Shown: piece by piece, positions 20,036-55,307 of the stretch
How the letters are laid out: each line of letters starts with the position of its first letter
How positions within the stretch are numbered: position 1 is the stretch's first letter
Assembly (NCBI GenBank): GCA_001304225.1
Contig: LJVD01000004.1
Location: forward strand, 1-61,918
Source of the DNA: a candidate division Zixibacteria bacterium SM1_73
GTDB taxonomy: Bacteria; Zixibacteria; MSB-5A5; SM1-73
Direction of reading: 5' to 3'
Length of the DNA stretch: 61,918 nucleotides
The notes under the pieces: model-generated
Seen by the model: only the letters and a program-made list of their open reading frames with translations
Told to the model about the DNA's origin: nothing
Database searches by the model: none
Program-made: the position numbers and the translations under genes

Positions 20036-21907
20036 TCATCTGTTGGAAAGTACTCTTTTATCTCCCTCCCTTTCGGTTACTCCCTGTTGATCCAGTTTTT
20101 CTAAAATGGGAACCATATATTTGCGGGTGGTGGAAACATGTTCCCTCAGTTGACTCACCGTAGCGGGTCCATTCTTGTCGATGAAATCCACGATCTTATT
20201 TTTAATCTTCTCAAAATCTTCTTTTCTGAAAAGCACTCCATCCTTCAATTCGATTAGTTTCCCCCCTTGGATCAAAAACATCAAAACATCTTCATGATTT
20301 GAGCTCTCACCCAAAATTTCCTCTTTGGTGGGTGGAGAAAGCGGATGGACAACAAATTTCTGCAATATTTTTTGAGAGAGATTCTCTTGTTCTGGAGTAA
20401 GTTTGGGCTTATGAGAAGGAAGCCTGAGATAAGCCTCCTGTTGAACTATTCTTCTATCCTTTACCAGGGATCTGATAGCTTCGGTCAAGAGATCCTCTTC
20501 TATTTTCAGTTTCCCGGAAAGCCCTGCAGATTTCACTCCAATTTTGAAGGGAAATTTCTGGTGTGTTTTTTCCACCTCTTTGGTTATTTTTGTTAACACC
20601 TCTTCCCATCTTGATTTATGTATCAGCAGATTTTCGATCAAAAATATTCTCCCTGCTTTTTCCAATTCCGTCAAGCTTGACTCAATTTGGCTCCGGCTGA
20701 AATTGCCTGCTTTTAGGATGTCTCTCCTTAACATGAAATTTTGTCTTTCCAAATCAGAAAGAATTAAATCCGGCAGGTTTAGATTCAGTCTCCTTCCAAG
20801 ATCAGGGACTAACCACTTATCTTTTTTCTTATATACTCTTGGAGAGACATCCAATACGATTCCGCCTCCGATGGTTATCTGTGGCGAAGGCAATCTCAGT
20901 ATAAAATGATCTCCGATTCGAGCTAAGAGATTCTCTTTGCATTTAAACTGCACCAAAGCAGAGCCGCCCGGCTCTATTTTCTCTTTATTTAGAATATTGA
21001 TCCTGGCCAAAAGTTCAGTGGTTCCCAAAATTAGAAGGAGCTGGGCATTATGTTTTATGGGGAATGCCATAGTGGACACTAGGTCAACTTTGGCGGCGAA
21101 AATATCGGTGGTTTCATCCTGAGCCGCTTTGGTGACTACGTCTCCCCTTTGGATATCTACTTTTTCCAGCCCAGCTAAATTCATTGCCACCCTGGTCCCG
21201 GGCAAGGCTTTTTCAAATTTCTTCTTGTGGGTTTGTAAATCTCTTATCCGAGCGGAAATTTTTTGAGGAAGAATTTCTATCTCCTCCCCCAAATGGAAAG
21301 AACCGTCGATCAGGGTGCCGGTGACCACCGTTCCCCTGCCGGCCATGGTGAAGACCCGATCGATATACATTCTCGGTTTTCCGATATCTTTCCGGGGCTG
21401 GATTTCAGAAATCATCTTGGCTATTTCGTCATAAAGCTTTTTTATTCCAATCTTATTGGGGGAGGAAACTTCGAGTATGGGGGCACCTTCCAGAATAGTC
21501 CCTCTTACCTTTTCCTTGATATCTTCTTCTACTAAGCTCAGCCAATCTTCTTTAACCAGGTCTATTTTGGTTATCACCACGATTCCTCTTTTTATCTTTA
21601 AAAAATCCAGGATTTGTAAATGTTCTTGGCTCTGGGGCATCCAGCCATCATCCGCTGCCACCACAAATAAGACCGCATCGATTCCCCCCACCCCAGCCAC
21701 CATATTCTTCACAAATCTCTCATGACCGGGAACGTCTACGATTCCCACCTCTGATCCGTCCGGAAGAGAAAGCCAGGCAAAACCTAAATCGATGGTCATG
21801 CCCCTTCTTTTCTCCTCCGGAAGCCTATCCGGATCGATGCCGGTTAAGGCTTCCACCAACTTGGACTTTCCATGATCTATATGTCCGGCAGTTCCTATGA
21901 CAAACAT
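20036..21907 (-). CDS. selB: selenocysteine-specific elongation factor
   Basis: GTPase motifs GHIDHGKS, DVPGHE and TKID, plus a long winged-helix C-terminal region. It is adjacent to selA. Confidence 0.9.
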   Translation of the reverse strand: MFVIGTAGHIDHGKSKLVEALTGIDPDRLPEEKRRGMTIDLGFAWLSLPDGSEVGIVDVPGHERFVKNMVAGVGGIDAVLFVVAADDGWMPQSQEHLQILDFLKIKRGIVVITKIDLVKEDWLSLVEEDIKEKVRGTILEGAPILEVSSPNKIGIKKLYDEIAKMISEIQPRKDIGKPRMYIDRVFTMAGRGTVVTGTLIDGSFHLGEEIEILPQKISARIRDLQTHKKKFEKALPGTRVAMNLAGLEKVDIQRGDVVTKAAQDETTDIFAAKVDLVSTMAFPIKHNAQLLLILGTTELLARINILNKEKIEPGGSALVQFKCKENLLARIGDHFILRLPSPQITIGGGIVLDVSPRVYKKKDKWLVPDLGRRLNLNLPDLILSDLERQNFMLRRDILKAGNFSRSQIESSLTELEKAGRIFLIENLLIHKSRWEEVLTKITKEVEKTHQKFPFKIGVKSAGLSGKLKIEEDLLTEAIRSLVKDRRIVQQEAYLRLPSHKPKLTPEQENLSQKILQKFVVHPLSPPTKEEILGESSNHEDVLMFLIQGGKLIELKDGVLFRKEDFEKIKNKIVDFIDKNGPATVSQLREHVSTTRKYMVPILEKLDQQGVTEREGDKRVLSNR

Positions 21908-22014
21908 ATAATTTTCTGAAAAACGTTTTTTTGGACTGACAAGCGGTAAAGGCTTGCCTACGCTAATTAAACGCTAGAACTACAGAGAGAGTATAATGCA
22001 GAAATTAGAAAGAA

Positions 22015-23442
22015 TCAACTTTTTTTGGGAAAAATGTTCTTTATCGCCTTTATGATCAGATCATCCTGATGAGGGAAAATGGTTCTTAAATCCAACACGA
22101 ATTTCTCATCCTCTATGCGGCCAATTATGGGTGGAGATTGTTCTCTGAAAAGCTGGGCTAACTGATCAGCGGTATGAACCGCATGGTTCATACCAGCGGA
22201 TTCAGTAGATTCAACAGATATTGCCACTGTTGGCAAGGTTTCACCTGGAAGGGAGCCTCCTCCCACCGTGCTTTTGCTCTCTTTTATGGTGATTGAAATT
22301 CCTGATTTGTGTAACTCTTCTTTGATATTCTCCGCCCTTTTTCTCAAAACATCCAAAGGAGCGCTGATCATTTGCCAGGCAGGAATCTTTTTAGTTGCCT
22401 GGCCCTTGAGATAAGAAAGCAAAACGCTTTCCAGGCCGGCAATGAACATTTTATCCAATCTTAGGGCGCGGTGAAGAGGGTGTTTTCTTAACAGATCAAT
22501 ATATTTCTTCCTCCCCAAAATTATTCCGGCTTGAGGTGCACCCAAGAGCTTATCCCCTGAAAAACAGACCAGGTCTGCTCCAGCGGAAATAGCCTCCAGT
22601 GCCGTGGGCTCGTGCGCCAGTTCAAAATCCTCGGTCCTGAGCATGACTCCGCTTCCCAGATCCTCTGCCGCACAAAGATTGTGCTTCCTTCCTAAATTCA
22701 CTAATTCACTTATAGGCGGTCTCTCTACAAATCCGATCATTCTGAAATTGCTCTGATGGACTTTGAGCAGAAGGGCGGTATCCTGAGTTATGGCGTTCTC
22801 ATAATCGGAAAGGGTGGTCTTGTTGGTGGTTCCCACTTCTTTTAAAATTGCTCCGCTCAAAGCTAAAATCTCAGGGATGCGAAAGCCACCGCCTATCTGC
22901 ACCAACTCGCCTCTTGAGACGATAACCTCTTTTCCTTCTGCTAAAGCGGTCAGAATCAAAAGAACTGCCCCGGCGTTGTTATTTACTGCTAAGGCAGCCT
23001 CGGCTTGAGTCAACTGGCACAAAAGCTTTTGTAAAAAAATTCCTCTATGGCTTCTTTTTCCCGCTTTGAGATCAAATTCCAAATTATTATAATTCTTGCT
23101 GATCTCTACTATGTGGGACAATGACTCTTCATCCAAGGGTGCGCGTCCCAGATTGGTGTGCAGGATCACCCCGGTGGCATTGATCACCGGTCGGACTAAA
23201 TCCGTAGTCTTTTCTTCAACAGCTTGGCTAACTTTTTCGACTATTTGATCAAAGGAAATATCTTGTGGAACTTCTTTGATCTGTTCTCTTATGGAGGAAA
23301 GCATCTCTTTTGCTGTTTGGCTTACCAGAGGATGGGAATATTTTTCGATTTTCTCTTTTAGCTTTTCCGATTCTAAGATTTTTTCGACGCTAGGAAGCTG
23401 TCTTAACTTCTCCTTGATCAGCTTTTCACTTGGATTTTGCAT
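22015..23442 (-). CDS. selA: L-seryl-tRNA(Sec) selenium transferase
   Basis: PLP-lysine context FSGDKLLGAPQAGII and an N-terminal LPSVEKIL motif. Confidence 0.9.
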   Translation of the reverse strand: MQNPSEKLIKEKLRQLPSVEKILESEKLKEKIEKYSHPLVSQTAKEMLSSIREQIKEVPQDISFDQIVEKVSQAVEEKTTDLVRPVINATGVILHTNLGRAPLDEESLSHIVEISKNYNNLEFDLKAGKRSHRGIFLQKLLCQLTQAEAALAVNNNAGAVLLILTALAEGKEVIVSRGELVQIGGGFRIPEILALSGAILKEVGTTNKTTLSDYENAITQDTALLLKVHQSNFRMIGFVERPPISELVNLGRKHNLCAAEDLGSGVMLRTEDFELAHEPTALEAISAGADLVCFSGDKLLGAPQAGIILGRKKYIDLLRKHPLHRALRLDKMFIAGLESVLLSYLKGQATKKIPAWQMISAPLDVLRKRAENIKEELHKSGISITIKESKSTVGGGSLPGETLPTVAISVESTESAGMNHAVHTADQLAQLFREQSPPIIGRIEDEKFVLDLRTIFPHQDDLIIKAIKNIFPKKS

Positions 23443-24467
23443 CTTTTGTCCTCGACTATATCGCCAATGACCACAGAGTTGGGCACGCCTTTGGAAATAA
23501 GACGACCCAGAAGCTTCTGCTCCTTTTCTTTTGCCACCGCGATCAACAGTCCCCCGGAGGTTTGCGCATCGGATAGGATCAATTTTGCTTCCTCAGAGAT
23601 ATCCCGATCCCAATCTGCTTTATCCTGAATAAACTTAAGATTTGCCAAAGTACCACCTGGGACCACCCTCTGTTTTGCCAGTTCCCAAGCATAGTCTATC
23701 ACGGGAACCTTGGATAAAAAGACTCTTGCTCCAACATTTGAAGCCTGCACCAACTCCCACAGATGTCCCAAAAGCCCGTAACCTGTGATATCCGTACAAG
23801 CATTGATCCCCACATCCAGCATTGCCTCTGAGGCAAATTTATTTAGAAAAATCATTATCTTCACCGCTTCGGCTACCCACTTCTCCTCGACCTGCTCTTT
23901 TTTAATAGCCGTGGTTATGAGCCCAATCCCTAACGGCTTGGTCAACACCAAAGAATCTCCAACTTTGGCCTTGGCATTACTTATTATCTTATCTGGATGA
24001 ATTGTTCCGGTTACTGCCAGTCCATATAGCGGCTCTTTGGTTTTGAGAGTATGACCGCCTATTATAGCCACATCCGCCTCTTGGGTTTTGTCTGCGCCTC
24101 CCCTTAGGATTTCATCCACGGCCCATAAAGGAACGGACTTTGGAGGAAAACCAAGAAGATTAAGTGCAGATAAAGGTTTTCCTCCCATGGCGTAGATATC
24201 GCTTAAGGCATTAGCCGCCGCTATTCTCCCGAAATCATAAGGATCATCCACCACCGGCGGAAAGAAATCCACGGTTTGCACCAGAGCTAGATCTTCTCTT
24301 ATCTTGTAAACCCCGGCATCATCCACCGAGTTGAACCCAACCAACACATTCGGGTTTTTCATTTTGGGCAAATGACTCAGAACCTGAGTCAGGTCATCAG
24401 GACCACACTTTGACGCTCACCCAAAACTCGATGCCAAACGGGTCAATCTAATTTTTTGTTCACTCAT
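23418..24467 (-). CDS. selD: selenide, water dikinase containing selenocysteine (in-frame TGA at 24419-24417)
   Basis: The ORF track starts at 24371. The same frame is open upstream to the ATG at 24467, giving MSEQKIRLTRLASSFG-U-ASKCGPDDLTQVLSHLP. G-U-A-S-K aligns with the G-C-G-C-K active-site loop of E. coli SelD (Cys17/Lys20). Confidence 0.8.
24373..24391 (-). promoter_or_regulatory. SECIS-like hairpin for the selD UGA
   Basis: On the mRNA, tgactcag-GUU-ctgagtca is a perfect 8-bp stem. It starts 25 nt after the UGA, and the loop begins with G-U. Confidence 0.5.
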
Positions 24468-24530
24468 TTGATCTATTTCTTTTCCCGTTAGTGAATTTCA
24501 AAGGACAAATCGTTCCATTACTTGCTTTCC

Positions 24531-25499
24531 TCATTGACACTCGTCTCTTACAAACTTTCTCGTGGCACGAGTCGCCATAGCTCGACCAAAACTGAATGGA
24601 GTGGTACTCAAAAATTTATGAACCTGAATTATTCCGTAGTCCTCCAAATAACTAACTGCTCTGTTAATTCTACTTGGGGGTAATTTGGTGATTTCCTGAA
24701 TCTCTTGACCACTCAGTTCTTTTCTTGCCTCTATAGCAGAAACAATAATTTTAATGTCATTTTCGGGGTCATAACGTGTGCCTACCCCTCTGAAATGCAA
24801 ATATAAGGCGTAGGTTGGTTCGACTTGTGCGTAAGCAAAGGGTTGTGTTCCCAAAAATCGTAACGATTTTACCAGACCATGGGACTCAAGTTCTTCTATA
24901 GCATCATTTATTTCTTGGGGCGTAAACTCAAGAAGTTCGGACAGTTCCTTCACGTCATACCTTTTTCCAAACGGGCGACTATCGTCATTGTCCTTAACCA
25001 TGAATTCCCCTAATTTGGTAGCTTCAGGTGAGAGGCCTCCAATAGTCTCAGTTCGCGTAGCAACAAAGTCTGGGGGAACCCCTAATGTCGGCTTTTCTCT
25101 TATTTCAAAGATGCTTTTTAACAACTCTCGTGCCTTATTCTCAAAATCTGAAGACATATCGATCCATCTAAGGGGTTTTACAGCACTCGGTATATCACAT
25201 TGCTCTATAATAATCGGTATTATCTTCGTAATGCCCTGAATCTTCTTGATCATAGCAACATCAAGTTCATTTTGAACCCAATTTGACTTAACACTGCTCT
25301 TCGATAACAGTATCAAAAAGACGTCACAATTCCTCAGTCCTTCCTCAAATATTTTCTCGATTAAAGAATCTCCCGGCAATATTTCCCATTTATCCCACCA
25401 GGCATCGACGCCGTTTTCCCGAAGAATAGTTGCAATTTTCTCTGCGAAGCTTTTATCCGAATGGCTATAACTTATAAAGACTCGCGGTGCTTCGTCCAC
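24531..25499 (-). CDS. TIR-domain protein with two tandem wHTH-like C-terminal units
   Basis: TIR hallmarks VFISYSHSD and SKSSVKSNWVQNELDVA (candidate catalytic Glu). Internal C-terminal duplication: ELSELLEFTPQEINDAIEELESHGLVKSLRFLGTQPF and ELSGQEIQEITKLPPSRINRAVSYLEDYGIIQVHKFLSTTPF. GTG start 4 nt after AGGAGG. Confidence 0.8.
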   Translation of the reverse strand: MDEAPRVFISYSHSDKSFAEKIATILRENGVDAWWDKWEILPGDSLIEKIFEEGLRNCDVFLILLSKSSVKSNWVQNELDVAMIKKIQGITKIIPIIIEQCDIPSAVKPLRWIDMSSDFENKARELLKSIFEIREKPTLGVPPDFVATRTETIGGLSPEATKLGEFMVKDNDDSRPFGKRYDVKELSELLEFTPQEINDAIEELESHGLVKSLRFLGTQPFAYAQVEPTYALYLHFRGVGTRYDPENDIKIIVSAIEARKELSGQEIQEITKLPPSRINRAVSYLEDYGIIQVHKFLSTTPFSFGRAMATRATRKFVRDECQ

Positions 25500-25507
25500 T
25501 TCTCCTC

Positions 25508-26095
25508 CTATCTTTCACTAAACCACCGTTCAATATTCTCTTTCTTGATGATTGGGCGAACTGTTAAGGAAGTAATTCCAATTATTCCGCCCTGTAAGTC
25601 TCTTTTCTGACCCGGCGAAAACCAAATTGGTTTTGCTTGAACCGTACGGTCATCTTTTATGTGAACTACTTCAACAATAGCAATGCAGACTTCTACGTCC
25701 GCTAAATTTCGATATACCTCAAATAACGAACCAATTTCAGTGTTGTAATTACCCACAAAAAGAAAAATGTGATCTCCGCCAAAATCATCACAGCGTTGAA
25801 TACTTCTTAAAGTTATTTTCGAATATGAATTCTTGAATAGTCTGTATCCTTGATATGTAGCTGAAATTGTCAAGAACATAAGAGCAAAGAAGAACAAGAT
25901 TAGGAAGCAGATCCAGATACGGGTCAATATGTATACCGATGCCGGAAAAAGAAACCAGCCTCCAACGGTGGCGACTCCGGTGATAGTTGCCCACCACCAC
26001 CTAAAGAATGGGCCAAACATGATTCCTAAAAAGGTTGCATTTCTATTCATCTTTATCTCTCTGTCCCTGCGCAGTACCATCATCAAACAAGGCAA
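25508..26095 (-). CDS. small 2TM membrane protein with ~115-aa soluble C-terminal domain (unknown family)
   Basis: Hydrophobic helices FFRWWWATITGVATVGGWFLFPASVYIL and IWICFLILFFFALMFLTISATY. The stop codon lies 8 nt before the TIR start. An alternative start is the ATG at 26050 (MNRNATF). Confidence 0.6.
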   Translation of the reverse strand: MPCLMMVLRRDREIKMNRNATFLGIMFGPFFRWWWATITGVATVGGWFLFPASVYILTRIWICFLILFFFALMFLTISATYQGYRLFKNSYSKITLRSIQRCDDFGGDHIFLFVGNYNTEIGSLFEVYRNLADVEVCIAIVEVVHIKDDRTVQAKPIWFSPGQKRDLQGGIIGITSLTVRPIIKKENIERWFSER

Positions 26096-26178
26096 ACAGC
26101 ATCAGTTCAAAGAACCAACAGACATACAAAATCGTTTATTCTGCACCTTGTCTCATGAGGTACTTTCCAAAGATGGAT

Positions 26179-26406
26179 CTAAAGATTATTCATGAATTCC
26201 TCCGAGGTAACTTTCGCTTGCTTGAGAATTCCCTTGAGCGTCCCAATCTTAAGCTCGCGATGAAGTGGAACAACGCAGCCAACTTCACCTTCTTTCGTTT
26301 GCTTTTTTAAAACTACATGGCTGCCCCGTTGCCTTACCTTTTCGAAACCAAGTCTGTGCAAGGATCGGAGGACTTCCTCTCCGGACACCTTCCTTAATTC
26401 ACGCAT
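26179..26406 (-). CDS. hicA: HicA-family mRNA interferase toxin
   Basis: 75 aa with GFEKVRQRGSHVVLKK (the HicA GSH motif). It overlaps hicB by 8 nt. Confidence 0.85.
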   Translation of the reverse strand: MRELRKVSGEEVLRSLHRLGFEKVRQRGSHVVLKKQTKEGEVGCVVPLHRELKIGTLKGILKQAKVTSEEFMNNL

Positions 26407-26611
26407 TAGCTACCACCTCAAATGTAGCAAGGATCGGTTTTTCAACCTTGGTTTGTGGAAATTCCTCCAGGTAAAGCTCTGTGGCTTCTTTGAGATTGGC
26501 GATTGCTTCTTCAATGGTGTAGCCTTGACTTACTGTTCCCACCTCGGGACACTCTGCCACATACATATCCTCTTCTTTATGGAGGATAGCAGTAAAGGTT
26601 AAGGTAGCCAT
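26399..26611 (-). CDS. hicB: HicB-family antitoxin (UPF0150 fold)
   Basis: 70 aa with YVAECPEVGTVSQGYTIEEAIANLKEA, typical of the HicB N-terminal domain. Confidence 0.85.
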   Translation of the reverse strand: MATLTFTAILHKEEDMYVAECPEVGTVSQGYTIEEAIANLKEATELYLEEFPQTKVEKPILATFEVVANA

Positions 26612-26678
26612 CCTTCAACCTCCTAAACTAGGTTATAAATAAGGCTTTGCATATATAATCCGTTATAACTTGCTTTGT

Positions 26679-27500
26679 TTATATATCGATTACCATTCCC
26701 ACTCCATTTGCGATGAAATCCTCCTTATATTCTTCTTTAAACAATTCTCTGGTTTTATCTCCAGAGCAATGGCAAGGGGCCGCCTTTTTCACGCCCAGTT
26801 CCCTGAAGCTTTTTATTATCTCTCTTAATTTAGAATCACCAACTCCTCCTAAGTGAAAGCCACCCAGAACCAAATAGATCTCCTCGGTGGTTATCTTTTT
26901 AGCTTCTCTTAACATCTCCACAATCCCGGGATGGGCACAGCCGGTTATCACCACCAGCCCCTTTTCTGTTTTCACGATTAAAGCTTGTTCTTTAATCCAG
27001 GTGCCCAGCTCTCCGGTGGTGCTCACGCTTTCAGATATCTTTACTGGACCGGCAACCTCAACCACATTTGCCTTGTATGATTTTACTTTGTTTTTAAAAT
27101 CATCGGGAAATGAACTCAATAAACAAACGTCGAGATTTGAGTTAATCTCCAATATCCCCGAAAGTCCACCGGTATGATCTCCGTGAATATGGGACAGCAC
27201 GATTGTATTTATGGTTTTTGGATCTATACCCAATTTCTGCATATTATAAAGCAAGGTTGAGCTCTCTCCGCCGGTATCAAAAAGAATATTTTTATCTCCC
27301 ACTTTAACCAGACAGGAGAACCCCCATCCTGTCTTCAATTCGGGATCATGCTCGTAATTATCATAAACGGTAATTAAAGTGATTTTTGCTTGAGTTGATT
27401 CCATTTTAACTTTCTCCATCCTTTCTGTTTTTCTGCAACTGAAAAATGAAATTAACAAAAGTATTACGAGGAAGGGTATAAATGGGAATAACTTTTTCAT
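26679..27500 (-). CDS. MBL-fold metallohydrolase lipoprotein
   Basis: SHIHGDHTGGL motif. Signal peptide plus lipobox (ISFFSC) from the ATG at 27500. The ORF-track extension to 27647 is translation through the tRNA gene. Confidence 0.75.
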   Translation of the reverse strand: MKKLFPFIPFLVILLLISFFSCRKTERMEKVKMESTQAKITLITVYDNYEHDPELKTGWGFSCLVKVGDKNILFDTGGESSTLLYNMQKLGIDPKTINTIVLSHIHGDHTGGLSGILEINSNLDVCLLSSFPDDFKNKVKSYKANVVEVAGPVKISESVSTTGELGTWIKEQALIVKTEKGLVVITGCAHPGIVEMLREAKKITTEEIYLVLGGFHLGGVGDSKLREIIKSFRELGVKKAAPCHCSGDKTRELFKEEYKEDFIANGVGMVIDI

Positions 27501-27556
27501 AATACCTTCAAACTGATTAACGAGATCACTTGACCATGTGCTAAAATTAAAATAAG

Positions 27557-27651
27557 CGGAAGGGGTGGGAATCGAACCCACCTCCCCCCGGACCAACCGA
27601 GGGGACCACGGATTTGAAGTCCGCAAGGACCACCAGATCCTATCCACTACA
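27557..27651 (-). tRNA. selC: tRNA-Sec-like gene (anticodon TCA); acceptor stem not resolved
   Basis: Anticodon loop CUUCAAA, with UCA at 27617-27615. The D arm is a 6-bp stem with a 4-nt loop (AGGAUC-UGGU-GGUCCU). The variable arm is a 9-bp stem (UCCCCUCGG-UUGGU-CCGGGGGGA). The T arm is GUGGG-UUCGAUU-CCCAC. The 3' strand CCCUUCC-G lacks a clean 5' partner; the observed 5' strand is UGUAGUGG. Confidence 0.6.
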
Positions 27652-35240: not shown

Positions 35241-36449
35241 TCACCAAAATATCAAAGAAATTGCCCATGCAATCGAATCTTCTCCAAATCTATCTTTAAT
35301 CTTGTCCATGGCCAAATAGACATCTCTCTTTTGGTCATAAAATTCTGGGAAAGGTAAAGGGATTTGGGAAGAAAATCTGTCTCTGACGAGATTGGAGACA
35401 GATACCCCCAAAAGCCTCACCTTTCTTATCCCCAAGTCAAGACACGCACTCTGTGCCTTGAGGCCGGAGGCAAGCCCTTTAGCCAGCCTGTAGATTTTAT
35501 GTTCGGAATCCGTGGGCTTGGGAATGGTCTCCGATCTGGTGAGGGTCACAAAATCGGAATATCTCAGCTTTAGGGTGATGGTCCTGCCTTGAAGTCCTTT
35601 TCTGCGGAGCCTCCTTGCCACCATGCTTGACAGGGAGAGCAATACGGAGGAGATCTCATCTGGGTCGTTTGTGTCCTTAGGCAAAGTATGTTCATGTCCC
35701 ATGCTCTTCTCTAAAGGACTCTTGACAAGGACGGGGGAGTCGTCTACTCCATTAGCGATAAGATGAAGATATTCCCCAACCTTCCCGAACTGGTCTTTCA
35801 GAACCTCCACCGGAAAGGAAGCCAGATCTCCCACGGTTCTTATGCCAAACTTTGAGAGAACATTACAGGTCTTCTCCCCAATTCCCCAGAGCTTTCCCAC
35901 CTTTAGAGGGTAAAGTGTGTTTTTTATTTGATCCTTTGAAATGATGGTTAAACCATTCGGTTTATTCAAAGAGGAGGCTAACTTGGCCAGAAGCTTATTG
36001 GACGCAATCCCCACCGAACAGGAAAGTTCCAATTCATTCCTGATTTCATTTTTCAATTTCTGCGCTAATTGGTGAGGTGTGCCAAAGAGCCTCTGGCAAC
36101 CGGTTATGTCCAAAAAAGCTTCATCTATGGAGAAGGGTTCCACCGCTGGGGTGAAGTGGTAAAAAATTTTCACCAATTGTGAGGAGACGTAACTGTATTT
36201 TTCTATATCTCTCAAAATGACAAAGGTAGCGTGAGGACACAATTTTCTTGCAAGAGGCAAAGGCATCCCTGCCTCTACTCCATATTTTCTGGCAGGATAG
36301 GAGGCGGCAGAAACCACTCCATGCCTTTTTCGTGGATCTCCCCCCACGATCACCGGCTTTCCTTTAAGCCAGGGACGCTCCTTTTGCTCTACCGAGGCAA
36401 AGAAGGCATCCATATCTACGTGTAAGATTATTCGATCTTTCATGTTCAT
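35241..36449 (-). CDS. dinB: DNA polymerase IV
   Basis: ILHVDMDAFFASVEQ and SIDEAFLD motifs. The 20 aa upstream of 36449 in the ORF track are read from the GGTT/AACC hairpin. Confidence 0.9.
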   Translation of the reverse strand: MNMKDRIILHVDMDAFFASVEQKERPWLKGKPVIVGGDPRKRHGVVSAASYPARKYGVEAGMPLPLARKLCPHATFVILRDIEKYSYVSSQLVKIFYHFTPAVEPFSIDEAFLDITGCQRLFGTPHQLAQKLKNEIRNELELSCSVGIASNKLLAKLASSLNKPNGLTIISKDQIKNTLYPLKVGKLWGIGEKTCNVLSKFGIRTVGDLASFPVEVLKDQFGKVGEYLHLIANGVDDSPVLVKSPLEKSMGHEHTLPKDTNDPDEISSVLLSLSSMVARRLRRKGLQGRTITLKLRYSDFVTLTRSETIPKPTDSEHKIYRLAKGLASGLKAQSACLDLGIRKVRLLGVSVSNLVRDRFSSQIPLPFPEFYDQKRDVYLAMDKIKDRFGEDSIAWAISLIFW

Positions 36450-36454
36450 AGTTA

Positions 36455-36547
36455 GCAAGTTTGCAGGTTTGAAGGTTTCAAAATAACCTTCTAACCTGTT
36501 AATCTTCAAACCTCTTAACCTTTTAGCCTGCTAACTTTCTAACCTGT
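36455..36547. repeat. GGTT/AACC low-complexity long hairpin
   Basis: gtttgcaggtttgaaggtttc ... aaccttctaacctgttaatcttcaaacc, between lexA and dinB. Confidence 0.7.
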
Positions 36548-37159
36548 TCACATCTTTCTTAAAAGCCCGATCACTTTTCCGGCGATGCGAAACTCGGGAC
36601 TTTTCTTGTCCACAACGATCGGCTCAAAGACCGGATTGGCTGGCTCCAATCTTATTCTGTTCTTCTCCGGAAGGTATCTTTTTACGGTTGCCTCCTCCCC
36701 GATGACTGCCACCACAACATCTCCCCTTTCTGCGGTTGGCTGCATTTTTGCCAGAACATAGTCTCCATCAAAGATGCCCGAATCTTTCATGCTGTCACCG
36801 ACGACTTTTAAAGAGAAGATATCCCCTCCGGAAAGGAATGACCTGTCCACCGCAATGCTCCCTTCGATATTCTCCACCGCCAGGATGGGCAATCCAGCGG
36901 CTATTCTGCCCAATAAAGGAATAGCCATAAAAGAAGCCCCGCTTTGGGTCAAAAGCTCAATTCCTCGTGAGACCAAGGGCTTGCGCCTTATGTAACCTTT
37001 TTGGGTCAAAGCAGACAAGATAGCTCTCACCCCATTGGTGGAGCTGATCTTGAACATGTGCCCGATCTCCCTGATGGTGGGGGGATATCCCTTTTTCTGG
37101 ATCATCTCGGTGATGAAATCCAGAACGTCCCTTTGTCTTTTGGTTAATTCTTTTGACAC
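36548..37159 (-). CDS. lexA: LexA repressor
   Basis: N-terminal wHTH and an S24 peptidase core (VVGDSM ... TVKRY). GTG start after GGAGG. Confidence 0.9.
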   Translation of the reverse strand: MSKELTKRQRDVLDFITEMIQKKGYPPTIREIGHMFKISSTNGVRAILSALTQKGYIRRKPLVSRGIELLTQSGASFMAIPLLGRIAAGLPILAVENIEGSIAVDRSFLSGGDIFSLKVVGDSMKDSGIFDGDYVLAKMQPTAERGDVVVAVIGEEATVKRYLPEKNRIRLEPANPVFEPIVVDKKSPEFRIAGKVIGLLRKM

Positions 37160-37298: not shown

Positions 37299-37661
37299 CT
37301 AACTTTGTTTTAGATAGGATATAAACTTACTTATCATTCTAACACAAATCTCGGCTTGACCGAGCGAAGATCCATATTCTTTGGCGTTAAGGTACTTCTG
37401 ATCCCGTGCCAAATAGAGTTGAGATCTCACCTCCCCTGCTGATCTTTTTGCGTAATACAGAAATCTTACAAAATCATCTTTGCTTTGACTTTCATAGCCT
37501 TCGGCTATATTGGACATTATGGAGATAGCGGCTCTCCTAATCTGATCCCTTTACCCAAAATCTTTAATAAAGTTTTGATGTTTGGTTACCTCATAAACCA
37601 TATTGGTGAGTTTTCTGGCTTCCTGCCAAGCGTTGATTTCCTCAAATCTCTCGATCCTCAT
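37299..37661 (-). pseudogene. four-helix-bundle protein (23S rRNA IVS-protein family) with in-frame TAA
   Basis: From the ATG at 37661: MRIERFEEINAWQEARKLTNMVYEVTKHQNFIKDFG-TAA(37553-37551)-RDQIRRAAISIMSNIAEGYES..., all in one frame. Confidence 0.7.
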
Positions 37662-37718: not shown

Positions 37719-37747
37719 AATATACTGCCCATTTGTGCAGCTGTCAA
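37719..37747 (-). promoter_or_regulatory. sigma70-like promoter with LexA-box-like palindrome in the spacer (lexA operon)
   Basis: The minus strand reads TTGACA (37747-37742), 17 nt, then TATATT (37724-37719). The spacer is CTGCACAAATGGGCAG, giving CTG-N10-CAG and TGCNC-N4-GTGCA. Confidence 0.55.
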
Positions 37748-37902
37748 GGAAAAAATCGGCATATTTTGAAATTTTTTTAGCTAATTCAATAGCTGCGCAG
37801 GTGGGGTCCCAGCTTCGTAGAGATTATCCGTCGGGGACAAGCCATGCCGTCGGGACGAAATCTGGGTGAATCCTCCAGTATGGACCCCGACGCTACGGCT
37901 GT

Positions 37903-49388: not shown

Positions 49389-50630
49389 CTAAAAGGTCTC
49401 CCGCATGGCGCAGTGTTCTCCGCACATGGTGCATTTTTTATAATCGGCCTCGACCTTACCTCTTTTCTTTCTTGCCCTTTCCGGATCCAAACTCAGATTT
49501 ATCGTCTTTTCCCAGTCGAATTTCTTTCTGGCCTCAGAGATCTTATCATCTAACTCTTCAGCTTTCGCTACTCCTTTAGCAATATCCGCAGCATGAGCGG
49601 CAATCTTGGAGGCAATGATTCCTTGCCTCACATCCTCCAAATCAGGTAAGCTTAAATGTTCGGCCGGGGTCACATAACAAAGGAAATCCGCTCCTGCAGA
49701 AGCCGCAATAGCCCCACCTATGGCAGAGACGATGTGGTCATATCCCGGAGCACAGTCTATCACCAGAGGACCTAAGACATAAAAGGGCGCACCCTTGCAA
49801 AGCTTCTTTTCCAAAAGCACATTGGCTTCGATCTCATGAATGGGAATATGGCCGGGACCTTCCACCATTGCCTGCACTCCCTTTTCCCTTGCCCTTTCCA
49901 CCAACTCTCCCAGGACCAGAAGTTCTTCGACCTGGGTACGATCGGTGGAATCGGCAATCGAGCCTGGCCTTAATCCATCACCCAAACTCAGGGCGGCATT
50001 ATACTCTTTGGCCAAATCCAAAAGCTCATCGTAATATTCATATAAAGGATTTTCCCTGTTATGGGACTTCATCCATCTATACAAAAATGCTCCGCCCCGG
50101 CTGACGATCCCGGTGACCCTTTTCTTTTCCTCAATGATGGGGAATGCTCTTTTGGTGAGCCCGCAGTGGACGGTTAAGAAATCGACCCCGGTTTTGAGAT
50201 GATCCTCGATCACGGAAAACAAAGAATCCTTGGTCATCTGCTCCAAGGATTTCCCGTTTTGAGCCAATTTGCATACCGCCTCATAAATGGGAACCGTTCC
50301 CACGGGGATTTCCGCCCGGTTTAAGATCTCCACTCTCAAATCACGAATCTCTCCACCAGTGGAAAGATCCATAACAGTGTCTGCCTTAAGCTTTTGGGAA
50401 AGTTCCAATTTTTTCAGCTCTAAGTCGAAATCGATCCTATCCGGGGAGGTGCCTAAATTCACATTGATCTTAGTCCTTAAGCCTTTTCCCACTCCCACCG
50501 GCTTCGCTTTTTGGTGCATCTTGTTCTTGAGGATGACTATGGTTCCTTTTTGCACCGCTTCTTTTACGAATCCAGTTTCGAGCCCCTCATCTTTTGCTAC
50601 TATTTTAATATGTTCCTCTTTTACTGGCAT
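49389..50630 (-). CDS. thiC: phosphomethylpyrimidine synthase
   Basis: Radical-SAM ThiC core and the C-terminal CTMCGEHCAMR cluster motif. Confidence 0.9.
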   Translation of the reverse strand: MPVKEEHIKIVAKDEGLETGFVKEAVQKGTIVILKNKMHQKAKPVGVGKGLRTKINVNLGTSPDRIDFDLELKKLELSQKLKADTVMDLSTGGEIRDLRVEILNRAEIPVGTVPIYEAVCKLAQNGKSLEQMTKDSLFSVIEDHLKTGVDFLTVHCGLTKRAFPIIEEKKRVTGIVSRGGAFLYRWMKSHNRENPLYEYYDELLDLAKEYNAALSLGDGLRPGSIADSTDRTQVEELLVLGELVERAREKGVQAMVEGPGHIPIHEIEANVLLEKKLCKGAPFYVLGPLVIDCAPGYDHIVSAIGGAIAASAGADFLCYVTPAEHLSLPDLEDVRQGIIASKIAAHAADIAKGVAKAEELDDKISEARKKFDWEKTINLSLDPERARKKRGKVEADYKKCTMCGEHCAMRETF

Positions 50631-50973
50631 AAGAGCTTCCTTAAATCAAACGATTTATTTCTCCCGGGAATGATAAACACAAATCGTTTCACATTAGATA
50701 ATACAATGGATCGGCTTTGTCAAGCAATTATTTAGAAGTGCTCCGATCATATCTGCATACGGCAAGTCAGACCTGCCCGTTGGTATGCACCATATGAAGC
50801 ATACCGTTGGCATGAACCATTTGGTTCATATAGTCAGAAAATAAGGAGTTTCTTTGTTTACAAATTTTTTAGTCGGGTCAAAACCCGACAGTACTCACGT
50901 TAGTTGCAGCGTACAACTCTGCCTACTCTGAACACCGTTGAAGGAGGGTGTGACGCTCTTTTATTTGCAGAAT

Positions 50974-51003
50974 GGTCAAGGGTGAGACACCCTTGACCAA
51001 CAA
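50974..51003 (+). repeat. REP-like hairpin, family H (left flank of accessory island)
   Basis: ggtcaagggtgagacacccttgaccaacaa. The reverse complement of 58645-58675 differs by a single 1-nt indel. Confidence 0.75.
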
Positions 51004-51119
51004 GCCATTTCTTTCGTCAGGTACAAGACCCGTAGCCATCTCATATTGCCTGTAGCCACGAAACTCCGGGTGCGATGCTTTTTCTGTGTGTTAAAGAAAC
51101 AGTCGAGTAAACTCGACCA

Positions 51120-53777
51120 TTACATCAATCCGTTTGATTCGATGACAAGCCCCTCCGCCATCTTTCCTATCTCTACATCTGTATTTTTCAAAAGCGCATC
51201 CTTGTTTAATTCTATGTTTTTCTTGGGTATGGTCAATCGATAAGAACCCAAGCGATTATTTTCAAAGAGAGCTTGACCCTGGTTTAGACTTGGTTTTATC
51301 TGGTTTTTTAACCTATGCAAATATCTGGCCTGATTTTCTCCTGGTTCGAAATCGTCTTTGTGAATCCATCCACCTTCATTTTTGAAGAGTGCCCAGGTCA
51401 GCTTAATCAAATATTTGAAACTCTTTGCAGGGAGATTTACCCTCTTTCCGTTAACCAAAACCGAAAACTTATCCTTTACTGCAGATCCATCAATCACCAA
51501 CTCTATTCCCTCTTGTTCTAAACTTCGAGTCTCCTGTTTTTTTGACCTAAATATAGAATCTTGAACCTTGAATTTTGAATCGTGAATTCTTTCTTTCAAT
51601 CTTTCCGCCACTCTGGTCGGGATGAGTTTTTCCAACTCAGCAAGTTTCGCTTCCTTTATTTTCTTTGGGTCGGAAAACTTGTTTTCCACCAAATTCCAGA
51701 TGTAATCTCTGCCAAGTCCAGGAGTTCTCAATTTTGCCAACTTCAAACCTCTTTGATCCACTCCGAAGTTCACCCCTTGTGAGAGGTTTTTTAAGAAAGC
51801 AATTAACTTTCTGCTTAAGTTTAAAACACGAGCAATTCCACAAGCAGCATCCAGAAGCCAGCTTGCCTTTTTGCCAATCTGATCGATCTGACCTGACCGG
51901 CAATAATATTTGTTCTCTAAATTTAGGGTATTTTGGGGTGTTATCCAATCGGACAAAAGGAAAGAAAGTTTTACCAACTGGGTCTCTTTATGAGTGAATC
52001 CAATTTTTCTTTCCAAAAGGTCTTTGATCTCGTCATTTGTGCTTTGACTTTGTGGATATCTTTGCGACAATGCCTCTTCGTAGACTTTGTTCTGCTCCTC
52101 AAAAGGAAAAACATTTATATAAATATCCTCTCCGTCCTTTGTATCCAAAATATCATAAAACCAACTGAAAGGATCGAAATCTGAAGGTCCCTCTAATTTC
52201 CTCTTAAGAAGGAGTCCGGTTTGAACGGAGATACCCTTGAGAGCACACAAAGTCCCAAGCTTGGAGGCAAAGACTGTTTTTCCCTTGTCTGTGGTTAGAA
52301 GCATTTTATTTTGAATTAACTCTTCGACTTTTTCATCCAAAGCCCCGCCAAAGGCGGGATCGGAAATAAATCTTCCACTGGGAGCGGCTTTGATAACTTG
52401 TTCCAACTGAGACCTGTTTTTGGCGGCTTTGGATGTGATCAAGTCCAAGATTGTATCTTCCATATCCTTTTTATCTAACTGGAAAACGATCTTTTCGTCC
52501 TCTCCTTCGATATATCCTTCCCAAAGGGAATCGAAATGGAATTTATTAGCCGCAATCAGGATGGATCTGCCAAAATCTTTCTCCAGTCCGAATCTCCCTG
52601 CCCTTCCGGACATGTTTTCATATTCGCTCAAAGATATGGGCAGCATCACCGTCTTACCCGAATATTCTCCTAATTGATATTTTTGAGTCTCGATGAAAAC
52701 GGTTTTGGCGGGAAGGTTGACTCCCATAGATAAAGTGGTGGTGGAGAAGATAACCCTGACCTCTCCCTGGAGATAGAAAAACTCAACTGTCCTTCTTTCG
52801 TCAAAAGACAAGTCTGCATTGTGAAAGGCTATCCCTTTTTGAAGGCATCCTATCAGTTTTTCTTTCAAGGTAGTGTTTTCCAAATCAGACAAAGCCTCGA
52901 TTGCGTTCAAACAAGGAGGAAGGTTCGCTTTCTCCGAAAAAAGAGAGGCAAGAGTTTCTGAATCGAGTTTGCTTTTCAAAAAAACTAGGACCTGTTCGCC
53001 ATCCTTGACTAATTTTTCCACATTAGCAAAAAGAATCGGATGTGCTTCTTCCGAATCCAAGCTCACCAATTCCTCTGTTCCCTCTTCCCTTGAATTATGT
53101 TTTTTGTAGAAAAAATTTCCATCCAGGAGTATTCCCTGCCAAAGCTCCACCGGTCTTGATTTCTCTAAAAGAAGCTTGCATTCTAACCAGGAGGACAATT
53201 CATCCACCTCACTCAAAACGGCAGATAGACCCAAAATCTGCGGGCGATACTTGGAAGTTCTAATTTTGAGCAAAGCCAACTCCAAAACCGGGCCCCGGGA
53301 GGGATCAGCGATCATCTGAAGTTCATCCACAATGATGAGATTGACCTGGTTCAAAATATCCATATTCTTGATCAGAAGCTGATTGAACTTTTCGTAGATC
53401 ATGATGGCCAAATCGAAATCACCCTTTTCTATTCTTCTATCATGTTCCTGCCGATCCTTGGTGGAGATGACCACACCTATCCCTAGTTCTGAATATTTCT
53501 CCTGAAAATCTGAAAACTTCTCCTCGGCTATGGCTTTTAAGGGGACCAGATAGATCACCTTTTTCCTTTTGAATAAATTTGCCACCGAAGCCATCTCACC
53601 GCAGAAAGTCTTACCCGAAGAGGTGGGAGCGGAGATGATCAGACTTTGACCATTCAACAGGCCATGTTTGGTTACTGCTAAGGCTTGTAGAGGTAATAGC
53701 TCTTCACCCTGATTTTTTCTCCAGCTTTCGATGACCGACTCGGGAATTCCATATCTTAAAAGTTTTTCTACTCTCAT
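51120..53777 (-). CDS. Hel308/Ski2-like SF2 helicase fused to a C-terminal OmpR/PhoB-type winged-helix domain
   Basis: LLPLQALAV, Walker A APTSSGKT and VDELQ. HhH-like LRTPGLGRDYIWNLV. C-terminal VNGKRVNLPAKSFKYLIKLTWALFKNEGGWIHKDDF...RYLHRLKNQI...RLGSYRLTI matches the trans_reg_C pattern. Confidence 0.75.
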   Translation of the reverse strand: MRVEKLLRYGIPESVIESWRKNQGEELLPLQALAVTKHGLLNGQSLIISAPTSSGKTFCGEMASVANLFKRKKVIYLVPLKAIAEEKFSDFQEKYSELGIGVVISTKDRQEHDRRIEKGDFDLAIMIYEKFNQLLIKNMDILNQVNLIIVDELQMIADPSRGPVLELALLKIRTSKYRPQILGLSAVLSEVDELSSWLECKLLLEKSRPVELWQGILLDGNFFYKKHNSREEGTEELVSLDSEEAHPILFANVEKLVKDGEQVLVFLKSKLDSETLASLFSEKANLPPCLNAIEALSDLENTTLKEKLIGCLQKGIAFHNADLSFDERRTVEFFYLQGEVRVIFSTTTLSMGVNLPAKTVFIETQKYQLGEYSGKTVMLPISLSEYENMSGRAGRFGLEKDFGRSILIAANKFHFDSLWEGYIEGEDEKIVFQLDKKDMEDTILDLITSKAAKNRSQLEQVIKAAPSGRFISDPAFGGALDEKVEELIQNKMLLTTDKGKTVFASKLGTLCALKGISVQTGLLLKRKLEGPSDFDPFSWFYDILDTKDGEDIYINVFPFEEQNKVYEEALSQRYPQSQSTNDEIKDLLERKIGFTHKETQLVKLSFLLSDWITPQNTLNLENKYYCRSGQIDQIGKKASWLLDAACGIARVLNLSRKLIAFLKNLSQGVNFGVDQRGLKLAKLRTPGLGRDYIWNLVENKFSDPKKIKEAKLAELEKLIPTRVAERLKERIHDSKFKVQDSIFRSKKQETRSLEQEGIELVIDGSAVKDKFSVLVNGKRVNLPAKSFKYLIKLTWALFKNEGGWIHKDDFEPGENQARYLHRLKNQIKPSLNQGQALFENNRLGSYRLTIPKKNIELNKDALLKNTDVEIGKMAEGLVIESNGLM

Positions 53778-53849: not shown

Positions 53850-53878
53850 AATATACTGCACATCTGTGCAGATGTCAA
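53850..53878 (-). promoter_or_regulatory. sigma70-like promoter with LexA-box-like palindrome (helicase gene)
   Basis: The minus strand reads TTGACA (53878-53873), 17 nt, then TATATT (53855-53850). The spacer is the perfect palindrome CTGCACA-GA-TGTGCAG. 36 of 39 nt are identical to the lexA-operon promoter. Confidence 0.55.
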
Positions 53879-53942
53879 GGAAAAAAATATAAAAATGTTA
53901 TCCTCTACCGGTGAACCCTCATAACTTTGGCTTGCCAGTTCC

Positions 53943-54314
53943 TCACTTAATGATGAATTTCTTCAACCTCTTTTCGTCAACTTGAGTATCGATCAATTTG
54001 ATCAGATCTCGCGTCAGCTTTTTGTGATCTTTGTGTCCTCTCTTTACTGGCGTAATAAAAAGTACGGTGACAACTCTTTTATCGTGGTCTGTTTTTATGA
54101 ATATCCTATGCCCTGTTCGTCCTCCCACCCAAAGTTTCTTTACCTTTCCGGCGAGATCCGGCGGTAGGAATTTTCGCGGGGTTCCAGCATTTGGCGGATC
54201 ACTGGCTATTACCTGAAGTTGCGTGTCAACCTGACGTTTTAAAAACGAGTTTTCCTGCATATGTTTATATTGGTATTTAAAGATTTCGTGCCAGGCTATT
54301 TTATAAGAAGTCAA
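53943..54314 (-). CDS. RelE/ParE-superfamily-like toxin
   Basis: 123 aa with KKLWVGGRTGHRIFIKTDHDKRVVTVLFITPVKRGH, resembling the RelE/ParE core beta strands. It sits 17 nt after the Panacea-like gene. Confidence 0.5.
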   Translation of the reverse strand: MTSYKIAWHEIFKYQYKHMQENSFLKRQVDTQLQVIASDPPNAGTPRKFLPPDLAGKVKKLWVGGRTGHRIFIKTDHDKRVVTVLFITPVKRGHKDHKKLTRDLIKLIDTQVDEKRLKKFIIK

Positions 54315-54331
54315 TCCCCCTCCTCGCCACT

Positions 54332-54886
54332 CTAAACACGTCTCATGGCGCTTATAAAATCAGGGTCAAGGCCAAGCTCCAAATCTTCGCAATCATCATC
54401 TGATAAGTCGACAGGAATCCTTGGTGGCAGCTTTTCCTCAAAAATGTCTATTCCCTTTGCCACCGCCTCCAAATATTCTGGGTCGGAATGTGCCTTTTTG
54501 AGCAATTCTTCCTCTGGAAGATAACCGTATGTCTCTACCGATTTATTGATTTTTTCTTTCAGTTTGGCGTGAGTATGAGACATAGCCAGACTGTAGAATC
54601 TCATACTCTTTTTGTCTGTTAGAGAGTACTTATTCCCCTGGCCACTCTCAAGCGGGGTCGCCTTAGTATGATTCATGGACAATAGCTGTTCGTTAATAGT
54701 ATCTAAATCACCGCTGTGCGGACCATATAGATCGCATTTAAATCCAAATGGTTTTAGGCTGGCGTTTTTTAGGCCAAAATAGGCAACTTTGTTCAGCCTA
54801 AGCAGTCCGTAAACTCCATCCTTGAAGCGTCCAATGGTATACAAAAGGACCAATCTTTTGAAGGTATCTTTAGATATAGTACCCAT
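54332..54886 (-). CDS. Panacea (DUF4065)-like antitoxin candidate
   Basis: LLRLNKVAYFGL...FKCDLYGPHSGDLDTINEQL resembles the KLxKLLYxA...YGPV signature. Acidic C-terminal tail. Confidence 0.5.
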   Translation of the reverse strand: MGTISKDTFKRLVLLYTIGRFKDGVYGLLRLNKVAYFGLKNASLKPFGFKCDLYGPHSGDLDTINEQLLSMNHTKATPLESGQGNKYSLTDKKSMRFYSLAMSHTHAKLKEKINKSVETYGYLPEEELLKKAHSDPEYLEAVAKGIDIFEEKLPPRIPVDLSDDDCEDLELGLDPDFISAMRRV

Positions 54887-55307
54887 TTCGTTTACCTCCG
54901 TTTTGAAGCCTTTTCGACTTCATTCCACACAATTCAGAAAAATCTCGGTTTTTGATTGCTTTTTCTATTTTTTTGCACATATACCAGGTGGTTTTGTAAG
55001 GGAGCTCCAAATCTCTGCTTATTTGATTTATCGTCGCTTTCTTGGTTGAACAAATGAGATACAAAGCTATGAACCATTTGGTTAATGGAATGTAAGTTTT
55101 GTGAAAAATAGTTCCGGCGGTAACGGAGAATTGATACCTGCAATGGGAACATTCAAATTTTTTAACCGTTTCAATCCTTGTGATTTTCCTTCCACCGCAT
55201 CTCGGACAAAGAACACCATTTGGCCAACGTACCTTCTCAAGATACTTCTCGCATTCCTGTTCGGTTGCTAACCTGTTTATTATTTCTAACAACCTCATAA
55301 GAATCAT
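54870..55307 (-). CDS. stand-alone IS1595-type transposase zinc-ribbon domain protein (no DDE domain)
   Basis: CEKYLEKVRWPNGVLCPRCGG...FECSHCRYQFSVTAGTIFHKTYIPLTKWF. It overlaps the next gene by 17 nt. Confidence 0.65.
   Translation of the reverse strand: MILMRLLEIINRLATEQECEKYLEKVRWPNGVLCPRCGGRKITRIETVKKFECSHCRYQFSVTAGTIFHKTYIPLTKWFIALYLICSTKKATINQISRDLELPYKTTWYMCKKIEKAIKNRDFSELCGMKSKRLQNGGKRNGYYI

Follow-up and report, generated by a model that had tools for sequence, protein, structure and literature searches.

Does a Hel308-like helicase of an uncultured bacterium belong to the SOS regulon? The question is raised by contig LJVD01000004.1 of candidate division Zixibacteria bacterium SM1_73, which we analyzed over its 61,918 nt (hereafter the window, meaning that whole stretch): the promoter of the helicase gene is nearly identical to the promoter of the lexA operon on the same contig, and both carry a palindrome in the spacer between their -35 and -10 elements. 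Comparative analysis points to a positive answer, with a probability that we put at about 85%: the helicase promoter would be repressed by LexA and the helicase would be a member of the SOS regulon. Because this promoter is almost that of lexA and bears the same palindrome, and because the pairing is kept in well over 100 related uncultured bacteria, we take it as very probable that the helicase gene belongs to the DNA-damage-inducible (SOS) core of this lineage.

Two promoter-operator sites in the window

The sites and the genes behind them are the following.

53878-53850, minus strand: helicase promoter, with -35 TTGACA at 53878-53873, a 17-nt spacer and -10 TATATT at 53855-53850 (promoter scan, 11/12)
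53856-53871: predicted LexA operator of the helicase, CTGCACAGATGTGCAG, a perfect 7+7 inverted repeat (string and pattern comparison)
51120-53777, minus strand: AMJ73_00755 of SM1_73, a Hel308-like superfamily 2 (SF2) helicase of 885 aa with the Pfam domains DEAD, Helicase_C and Helicase_dom4_arc (PF21280)
37747-37719, minus strand: lexA-operon promoter, with -35 TTGACA at 37747-37742, a 17-nt spacer and -10 TATATT at 37724-37719 (promoter scan, 11/12)
37725-37740: predicted LexA operator of the lexA operon, CTGCACAAATGGGCAG, with one arm mismatch (CTGCCCATTTGTGCAG on the plus strand)
37299-37661, minus strand: first cistron after the lexA promoter, a four-helix-bundle gene of the 23S rRNA intervening-sequence (IVS) protein family (Pfam PF05635, 23S_rRNA_IVP, E 9e-34; TIGR02436)
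36548-37159, minus strand: lexA, 203 aa (TIGR00498, 216.9 bits against a cut-off of 110.95)
35241-36509, minus strand: dinB, DNA polymerase IV (Pfam IMS and IMS_C; NCBIfam Pol IV models)

Direct string comparison of positions 37719-37755 with 53850-53886 gave an identity of 34/37, and the similarity stops at either flank. The shared block starts with AATATACTGC and ends with GGAAAAAA, and its three mismatches fall on the operator position N, the spacer position N and the base following the -35. The original prediction had described shared windows of 39 nt with 3 mismatches; the similarity is real, but the last two bases differ and the block is 37 nt long. Read on the minus strand, both copies consist of cTTGACA, one base, the 16-bp palindrome and TATATT, and a T-run upstream is common to them as well. 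The promoter scan agreed with the predicted TTGACA, 17-nt spacer and TATATT on the minus strand at both sites, with 11 of the 12 consensus positions, and ranked the two sites among the top promoter matches of the 19.5 kb scanned. The palindrome announced for the spacer was also found, perfect (7+7) at 53.8 kb and with one arm mismatch at 37.7 kb. It occupies spacer positions 2-17 of 17, which places it 1 nt off the -35 and flush against the -10. The ATG of the helicase at 53777 lies 72 nt from the -10, a correction to the 73 nt given earlier.

With up to one mismatch allowed, CTGCNCANNTGNGCAG had two matches in the 62-kb window, namely these two sites, and no third; the expectation from shuffled sequences was 0.08, and two or more matches were obtained in 0 of 100 shuffles. 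The pattern TGCNC-N4-GTGCA, which the original prediction had brought in as the LexA box reported for Fibrobacter succinogenes, matched exactly at both sites and nowhere else in the window. When one mismatch was allowed, the matches to this pattern in the window were not above chance.

The identities proposed for the downstream genes, lexA, dinB and a Hel308-like helicase, were borne out by TIGR00498, by the Pol IV models and by NF002654 together with PDB structures. The LexA protein is 42% identical to E. coli LexA and keeps the residues for self-cleavage, namely the Ala-Gly site and the catalytic Ser and Lys (AAG, GDSM and VKR align with A84-G85, S119 and K156 of the E. coli protein), and its closest named homologues are from Zixibacteria. 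The view that the 37.7-kb promoter drives lexA-dinB holds in so far as both genes lie downstream, but the first open reading frame (ORF) behind the promoter is the four-helix-bundle gene and not lexA. This gene has an in-frame TAA at codon 37 and is split likewise in an independent Sequence Read Archive (SRA) assembly. Among the loci that we fetched for comparison, it is intact in L001 (LexA 89% identical), and L004 and L007 (LexA 82% and 75% identical) lack it. It is probably a pseudogene and looks like a decaying insertion in the lexA leader. In SM1_73, dinB lies directly 3' of lexA without an operator of its own, and the lexA-dinB order is kept in L001, L004 and L007.

Conservation of the predicted operator at lexA and at the helicase

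In the lexA relatives at 89%, 82% and 75% LexA identity, cTTGACA-A-CTGCACAAATG(G/A)GCAG-TATATT was found upstream of lexA in every case. The imperfect form of the palindrome is also kept, and the promoter-operator is conserved across L001-L009, while the sequence outside the lexA promoter block and the intervening gene differ among the relatives. Since the promoter-operator stays constant despite these differing flanks, the palindrome is, on this comparison, a conserved predicted operator and not a local duplication.

One genome per GTDB species (596 Gb, both strands) was scanned with TTGACANCTGCNCANNTGNGCAGTA, a pattern of 20 specified bases for which we estimate about 1 match by chance, assuming equal base frequencies. 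At least 118 loci matched, mostly from Zixibacteria, Eisenbacteria and related metagenome-assembled genomes (MAGs). According to a hand count of the record titles of the loci listed, 51 are labelled Zixibacteria, 17 Eisenbacteria, 27 'uncultured Ignavibacteria/-les/-ceae' or Ignavibacterium sp., 15 unclassified or Fibrobacterota-Chlorobiota-Bacteroidota (FCB), and 8 otherwise. The same pattern had no match in 2.9 million viral contigs, and a phage origin of the promoter was rejected on this result. In the 875 kb of fetched loci, zero further copies of the 16-mer were found outside the promoter-embedded position. The DNA downstream of the 121 sites listed was classified by blastx against the window proteins and two recurrent small proteins, with the following outcome.

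Hel308-like helicase: 59 sites, 45 of them with a small Cys-rich Zn-ribbon ORF in front of the helicase
Zn-ribbon ORF at a truncated locus end: 2 sites
lexA operons, often lexA, 98-aa ORF, dinB: 32 sites
dinB directly: 10 sites
98-aa ORF with a weak DUF6504 match: 8 sites
recA, two tandem sites in one MAG (L033): 2 sites
HD-domain protein: 1 site
truncated or unassigned: the rest

The sole regulator gene consistently tied to the motif was lexA (32 of the 121 sites listed, and also L001-L009). In several cases one and the same genome has the site in front of two or three target genes on separate contigs, as does SM23_73_3 at lexA (L050) and at the helicase (L116). The original prediction had proposed a search for the motif at further SOS genes, and such genes were found in other species: 10 of the sites belong to dinB itself, and in one MAG the motif stands twice before recA. 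In this MAG, which bears the label Chloroflexota, the two identical copies of TTGACAACTGCTCATCTGAGCAGTATCCT are arranged in tandem, 155 nt apart (L033:1420-1599, plus strand).

Because the GTDB scan was ascertained by the motif, a second sample was picked by the helicase protein. It comprised 73 metagenome loci with relatives at 88% to 33% identity, and the 500 nt upstream of each helicase were scored with a matrix made from lexA-promoter operators only, next to 536 control windows from the same loci. The helicase upstream region exceeded the 99th percentile of the controls at 59 of the 64 loci having at least 450 nt upstream, and the pairing of operator and helicase held from 88% to 34% protein identity. 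Four of the remaining five loci have the same TTGACA...TAT promoter with a variant palindrome (e.g., CTGAACATCCGTTCAG or GGGCACAAATGTGCAC); at the fifth, the contig end cuts upstream of its Zn-ribbon ORF. A search of the metagenome loci for the promoter-embedded form yielded 63 sites leading to the helicase. With 59/64 in a test whose matrix came from lexA promoters, the predicted operator thus accompanies the helicase throughout the family, which is the strongest support for placing the helicase in the SOS regulon. Of all the links between motif and gene, that with the helicase is the best conserved, more consistent than that with dinB. Overall, comparative genomics supports the SOS membership originally predicted, both by the motif-based and by the helicase-based count, and the helicase would be among the most conserved SOS regulon members in Zixibacteria, Eisenbacteria and the uncultured lineages allied with them.

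In five loci (L153, L155, L156, L159 and L194), helicase orthologues have the same promoter with operator arms CTGAACA...TGTTCAG, that is, a GAAC-N4-GTTC core. These arms look like a LexA box of the Gram-positive/Myxococcus type, and the loci would represent natural operator variants that form a series within a single family of genes.

Small proteins recur at these promoters. A Cys-rich protein of 55-94 aa lies between the LexA-box promoter and the helicase at 45 of the 59 helicase sites listed from GTDB and at 23 metagenome loci (e.g., L010, L022, L025, L029), mainly in the helicase clade that is at most 56% identical to the SM1_73 helicase. Its C-terminus, CPDCGxxM(V/I)RxGxCFSCPxCGxxSC, is Zn-ribbon-like, it has no Pfam match, and from the sequences it looks like an undescribed helicase partner. 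The 98-aa protein of Eisenbacteria-labelled MAGs (L014, L083, L097, L099, L119, L123) has a LexA-box promoter of its own or lies between lexA and dinB. It matched DUF6504 with E 3e-4, below the cut-off, and may be a further SOS regulon member. By tblastn, neither of these two small proteins is present in the window. At L028, on the minus strand, a 430-aa HD-domain protein (HD and HD_assoc_2) follows 3 nt behind a LexA-box promoter; by eye it resembles a deoxynucleoside triphosphate (dNTP) triphosphohydrolase, and the same MAG also has the box at lexA (L016).

Proposed LexA control and competing explanations

Both sites are near-consensus sigma-70-type promoters whose 17-nt spacer is nearly filled by the 16-bp CTGCNCA-N2-TGNGCAG, the proposed operator for the LexA of this lineage. 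In the undamaged cell, a LexA dimer seated between the -35 and the -10 would block RNA polymerase at both promoters. Upon DNA damage, RecA-stimulated self-cleavage of LexA would free both, the lexA promoter then giving lexA and dinB (autoregulation and a translesion polymerase) and the 53.8-kb promoter giving the Hel308-like helicase. A spacer-filling operator in a near-consensus promoter would fit tight repression and strong induction after LexA cleavage, judging by what is known of LexA and of operators located in spacers, and LexA-type control of the 53.8-kb promoter would place the helicase in the SOS regulon. In this scheme, the sequence, the identities of the genes and the conserved pairing of motif and gene are observed; we infer LexA as the binder, repression of the occlusion type, damage inducibility and graded affinity.

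With regard to affinity, among the GTDB sites listed the inverted repeat is perfect at 53 of 61 helicase sites, at all 10 dinB sites and at 7 of the 8 sites of the 98-aa gene. Imperfect operators were observed at 17/32 lexA sites versus 8/61 helicase sites (Fisher p = 6.6e-5, uncorrected for shared ancestry), and the window shows the same contrast, with a perfect helicase operator and an imperfect lexA operator. In E. coli, weaker LexA boxes go with earlier and leakier expression. As the palindrome is perfect at the helicase and imperfect at lexA, we suggest as a working hypothesis that the helicase would be repressed more tightly than lexA.

A wider proposal can be made only tentatively, and we regard it as somewhat doubtful. 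SOS in Zixibacteria, Eisenbacteria and allied FCB lineages might be a minimal regulon of lexA, dinB, the DUF6504-like 98-aa protein and the helicase. Its chief effector would be an archaeal/eukaryotic-type Hel308 fused to an OmpR-like domain, often accompanied by the Zn-ribbon protein; canonical SOS genes such as recA and uvrA would escape control by LexA, and the systematically weaker lexA operator would set the hierarchy of induction. If true, this would be a previously undescribed bacterial module for damage-inducible fork or crosslink repair.

Several points weigh against LexA control of the helicase. LexA binding and damage induction are predictions from sequence comparison. In a tblastn search of all fetched loci with RecA, recA was found in L033 alone, the locus labelled Chloroflexota; the evidence for the motif at the canonical SOS core thus comes from this one MAG and not from Zixibacteria. 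The GTDB scan demanded the -35 and part of the -10, and its at least 118 loci cover promoter-embedded operators only. The taxonomic labels of the MAGs are unreliable ('Ignavibacteria', 'Acidobacteriota' and 'Chloroflexota' may be wrong), and since the species are related, the site counts are not independent events.

The palindrome could instead be the operator of a regulator other than LexA, for example a damage- or stress-responsive repressor, by which lexA, dinB and the helicase would be co-regulated. There is some room for this, as LexA is assigned from sequence and its recognition helix is unlike that of E. coli. However, lexA is the only regulator gene that appears repeatedly behind the motif, the targets (lexA, dinB, recA and a repair-type helicase) are typical of LexA regulons, and a 16-bp dyad with CTG...CAG ends has a known LexA-box format. 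Moreover, the variant CTGAACATATGTTCAG upstream of some helicase orthologues fits the Myxococcus LexA box, and we give this explanation a small chance. That the two sites have in common just a strong promoter, or a promoter cassette copied not long ago, and that the spacer palindrome has no regulatory role, appears extremely improbable. A spacer is normally free to vary, and yet in more than 100 species no part is better conserved than the palindrome, while the flanks and the inner -10 positions change; it is also confined to a few DNA-damage genes and absent from the 875 kb of surroundings and from the viral contigs. These facts have to be set against the cTTGACA, the TATATT and the upstream T-run that the copies also share, and against the promoter copies that were seemingly duplicated near the helicase in L128 and L137.

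Lastly, the helicase might belong to a mobile or anti-phage module, as a Hachiman-type HamB or as part of the adjacent cassette or prophage remnant, in which case LexA control would reflect the biology of a mobile element. The PADLOC HamB models match the helicase core (E 4e-37), but the Hel308 match is far stronger and full length (355 vs 126 bits), no HamA (DUF1837) partner was found and the neighbouring ORFs have no Pfam match. Because HamA is missing and the Hel308 match is much stronger, the helicase was not filed under Hachiman (HamAB) in spite of its similarity to HamB. A variable three-gene cassette does lie directly upstream, with a weak terminase-like ORF beyond it, and other cassettes occupy this place in relatives; the helicase and its promoter, in contrast, are kept down to 34% identity, as for vertical inheritance, and the viral contigs contain no match to the promoter pattern. 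We consider this possibility very unlikely. If the helicase is under LexA control, as we propose, its pairing with the operator gives a testable assignment, damage-inducible fork or crosslink processing, and a clean operator model for an uncultured phylum, with one fixed promoter-operator design and few targets.

The helicase, its surroundings and known systems

The helicase matched NF002654 with E 5e-106 and 355.7 bits, the equivalog cut-off of 887 not being reached, and NF040935 with 268.4 bits, the cut-off of 1200 likewise not being reached. Its residues 16-729 align with residues 12-684 of archaeal Hjm/Hel308, near full length (2zj2, E 2.6e-61; 2p6r, E 6e-58; also 2va8). Since the NCBIfam equivalog cut-offs were missed, we call the protein Hel308-like and, by these profile scores, do not treat it as an equivalog of the archaeal protein. 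Its C-terminal extension (residues ~745-885, window 51120-51545, minus strand) is strongly conserved and absent from archaeal Hel308, and neither a Pfam search at E<5 nor a PDB profile search was informative about it. An AlphaFold model of the last 141 residues, made from a 10-sequence alignment, had a mean predicted local distance difference test (pLDDT) score of 86.7. When this model was compared with the PDB by Foldseek, the top 50 matches were all OmpR/PhoB-type winged-helix DNA-binding domains (ArlR, CadC, CovR, PhoP), with a probability of ~1, a template modelling (TM) score of ~0.6 on the target and an E-value of ~0.01. Residues ~760-850 are predicted to form an OmpR/PhoB-type winged helix.

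Around the helicase gene and elsewhere in the window, the following features were recorded.

51098-51121, minus strand: hairpin with a U-rich tail right after the helicase stop (RNA fold -11.1 kcal/mol, z -2.6)
49389-50630: thiC, 490 nt downstream of the helicase, with a promoter-like site of its own
50631-51119: upstream region of thiC (490 nt), with several hairpins
53943-55307, minus strand: three-gene cassette directly upstream of the helicase promoter, also present in L128
55666-58540, plus strand: 455-aa ORF without Pfam match, then 450-aa ORF with a weak Terminase_6N match (E 8.5e-6)
20036-27651, minus strand: selenocysteine machinery, with SelB at 20036-21907, SelA at 22015-23442 and tRNA-Sec at 27556-27651

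The hairpin behind the helicase stop is a possible intrinsic terminator; it does not appear among the hits of the consensus terminator scan. Since there is this hairpin with its U-rich tail and since thiC has its own promoter-like site, the helicase is probably transcribed alone in SM1_73. Between the helicase and thiC, no thiamine pyrophosphate (TPP) riboswitch was found at gathering or E<1 thresholds.

The three-gene cassette encodes an IS1595-type Zn-ribbon protein of 145 aa, a 184-aa ORF and a 123-aa ORF. The 184-aa ORF has a weak match to the PADLOC DarG C-terminal model, the sole PADLOC match among the neighbours, and by eye it is like a Panacea/SocA antitoxin domain; the 123-aa ORF is RelE/ParE-like by eye and has no Pfam match. 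The cassette may be a toxin-antitoxin module, and the 455-aa and 450-aa ORFs may be a prophage or mobile-element remnant adjoining the helicase locus. In L128 (sites 511 and ~2380) and L137 (sites 116 and ~2401), an intact distal LexA-box promoter stands upstream of inserted genes, which are the three-gene cassette in L128 and two ORFs of 393 and 321 aa in L137; the proximal copy just before the helicase has kept the operator and the -10, with a degraded -35. This combination of an intact distal and a degraded proximal copy suggests that the promoter was duplicated upon gene insertion at the helicase locus. A cassette insertion between the -35 and the operator was also considered, but duplication of the promoter, with loss of the -35 from the proximal copy, seems to fit the sequences better.

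Although the SOS regulon is mapped for most cultured phyla, our literature search found no such map for Zixibacteria or Eisenbacteria and no paper joining a Hel308-type helicase and LexA in bacteria, the co-mentions being yeast two-hybrid studies. To our knowledge, bacterial Hel308 homologues are rare and have no assigned role, and fork or crosslink processing has been proposed for archaeal Hel308 and human HELQ. While the mechanism proposed here is classical, textbook LexA, what is new is the conserved and previously unreported candidate SOS member, a Hel308-like helicase in an uncultured phylum. With archaeal Hel308/Hjm (2p6r, 2zj2, 2va8) and its relatives HELQ and the Pol theta helicase domain, the SM1_73 helicase shares the Ski2-like SF2 core and domain 4. 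It differs from archaeal Hel308 in being bacterial, in staying below the equivalog cut-offs, and in having an extra predicted OmpR/PhoB-type domain and a LexA-type operator; its bacterial relatives are, in addition, often co-transcribed with the small Zn-ribbon protein. Hachiman HamB has a Ski2/Hel308-like core as well, and the differences are the missing HamA and a LexA promoter conserved across the phylum.

The predicted operator can be compared with several LexA boxes. It shares with the E. coli SOS box (CTGT-N8-ACAG) the CTG-N10-CAG frame, the autoregulation of lexA, the dinB target and a cleavable LexA. The inner operator bases differ, the operator is fixed in the spacer whereas that of E. 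coli varies around the promoter, and the regulon apparent from the present sites is small, with a Hel308-like helicase, missing from E. coli, as its predominant member. The Fibrobacter box TGCNC-N4-GTGCA, reportedly described by Mazon et al. (2004, Microbiology 150:3783), comes from the same FCB superphylum and has its palindrome in the same register as other LexA boxes; the predicted Zixibacteria unit is longer (CTGCNCA-N2-TGNGCAG) and always lies within the TTGACA/TATATT spacer. That LexA was characterized in F. succinogenes is confirmed by a PubMed Central paper, which does not confirm the consensus itself. In Myxococcus xanthus, the SOS box is CTRHAMRYBYGTTCAGS (PMC9705874); it has the same length and the same CTG...CAG ends, and it is matched by CTGAACATATGTTCAG in L155 and L194, while the window sites fit it incompletely, with GTGCAG and GGGCAG arms instead of GTTCAG. 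The Bacteroidetes SOS paper mentions neither Fibrobacter, Zixibacteria nor Hel308. In Balneolaeota, another lineage of the FCB group, LexA has a direct-repeat motif, TTACACATATTTTWTACATA, which resembles the Zixibacteria operator neither in sequence nor in symmetry (PMC7739468). The regulon described there by comparative genomics and validated by electrophoretic mobility shift assay comprises lexA, recA, polymerases IV and V and 'a helicase' of unspecified type (PMC7739468).

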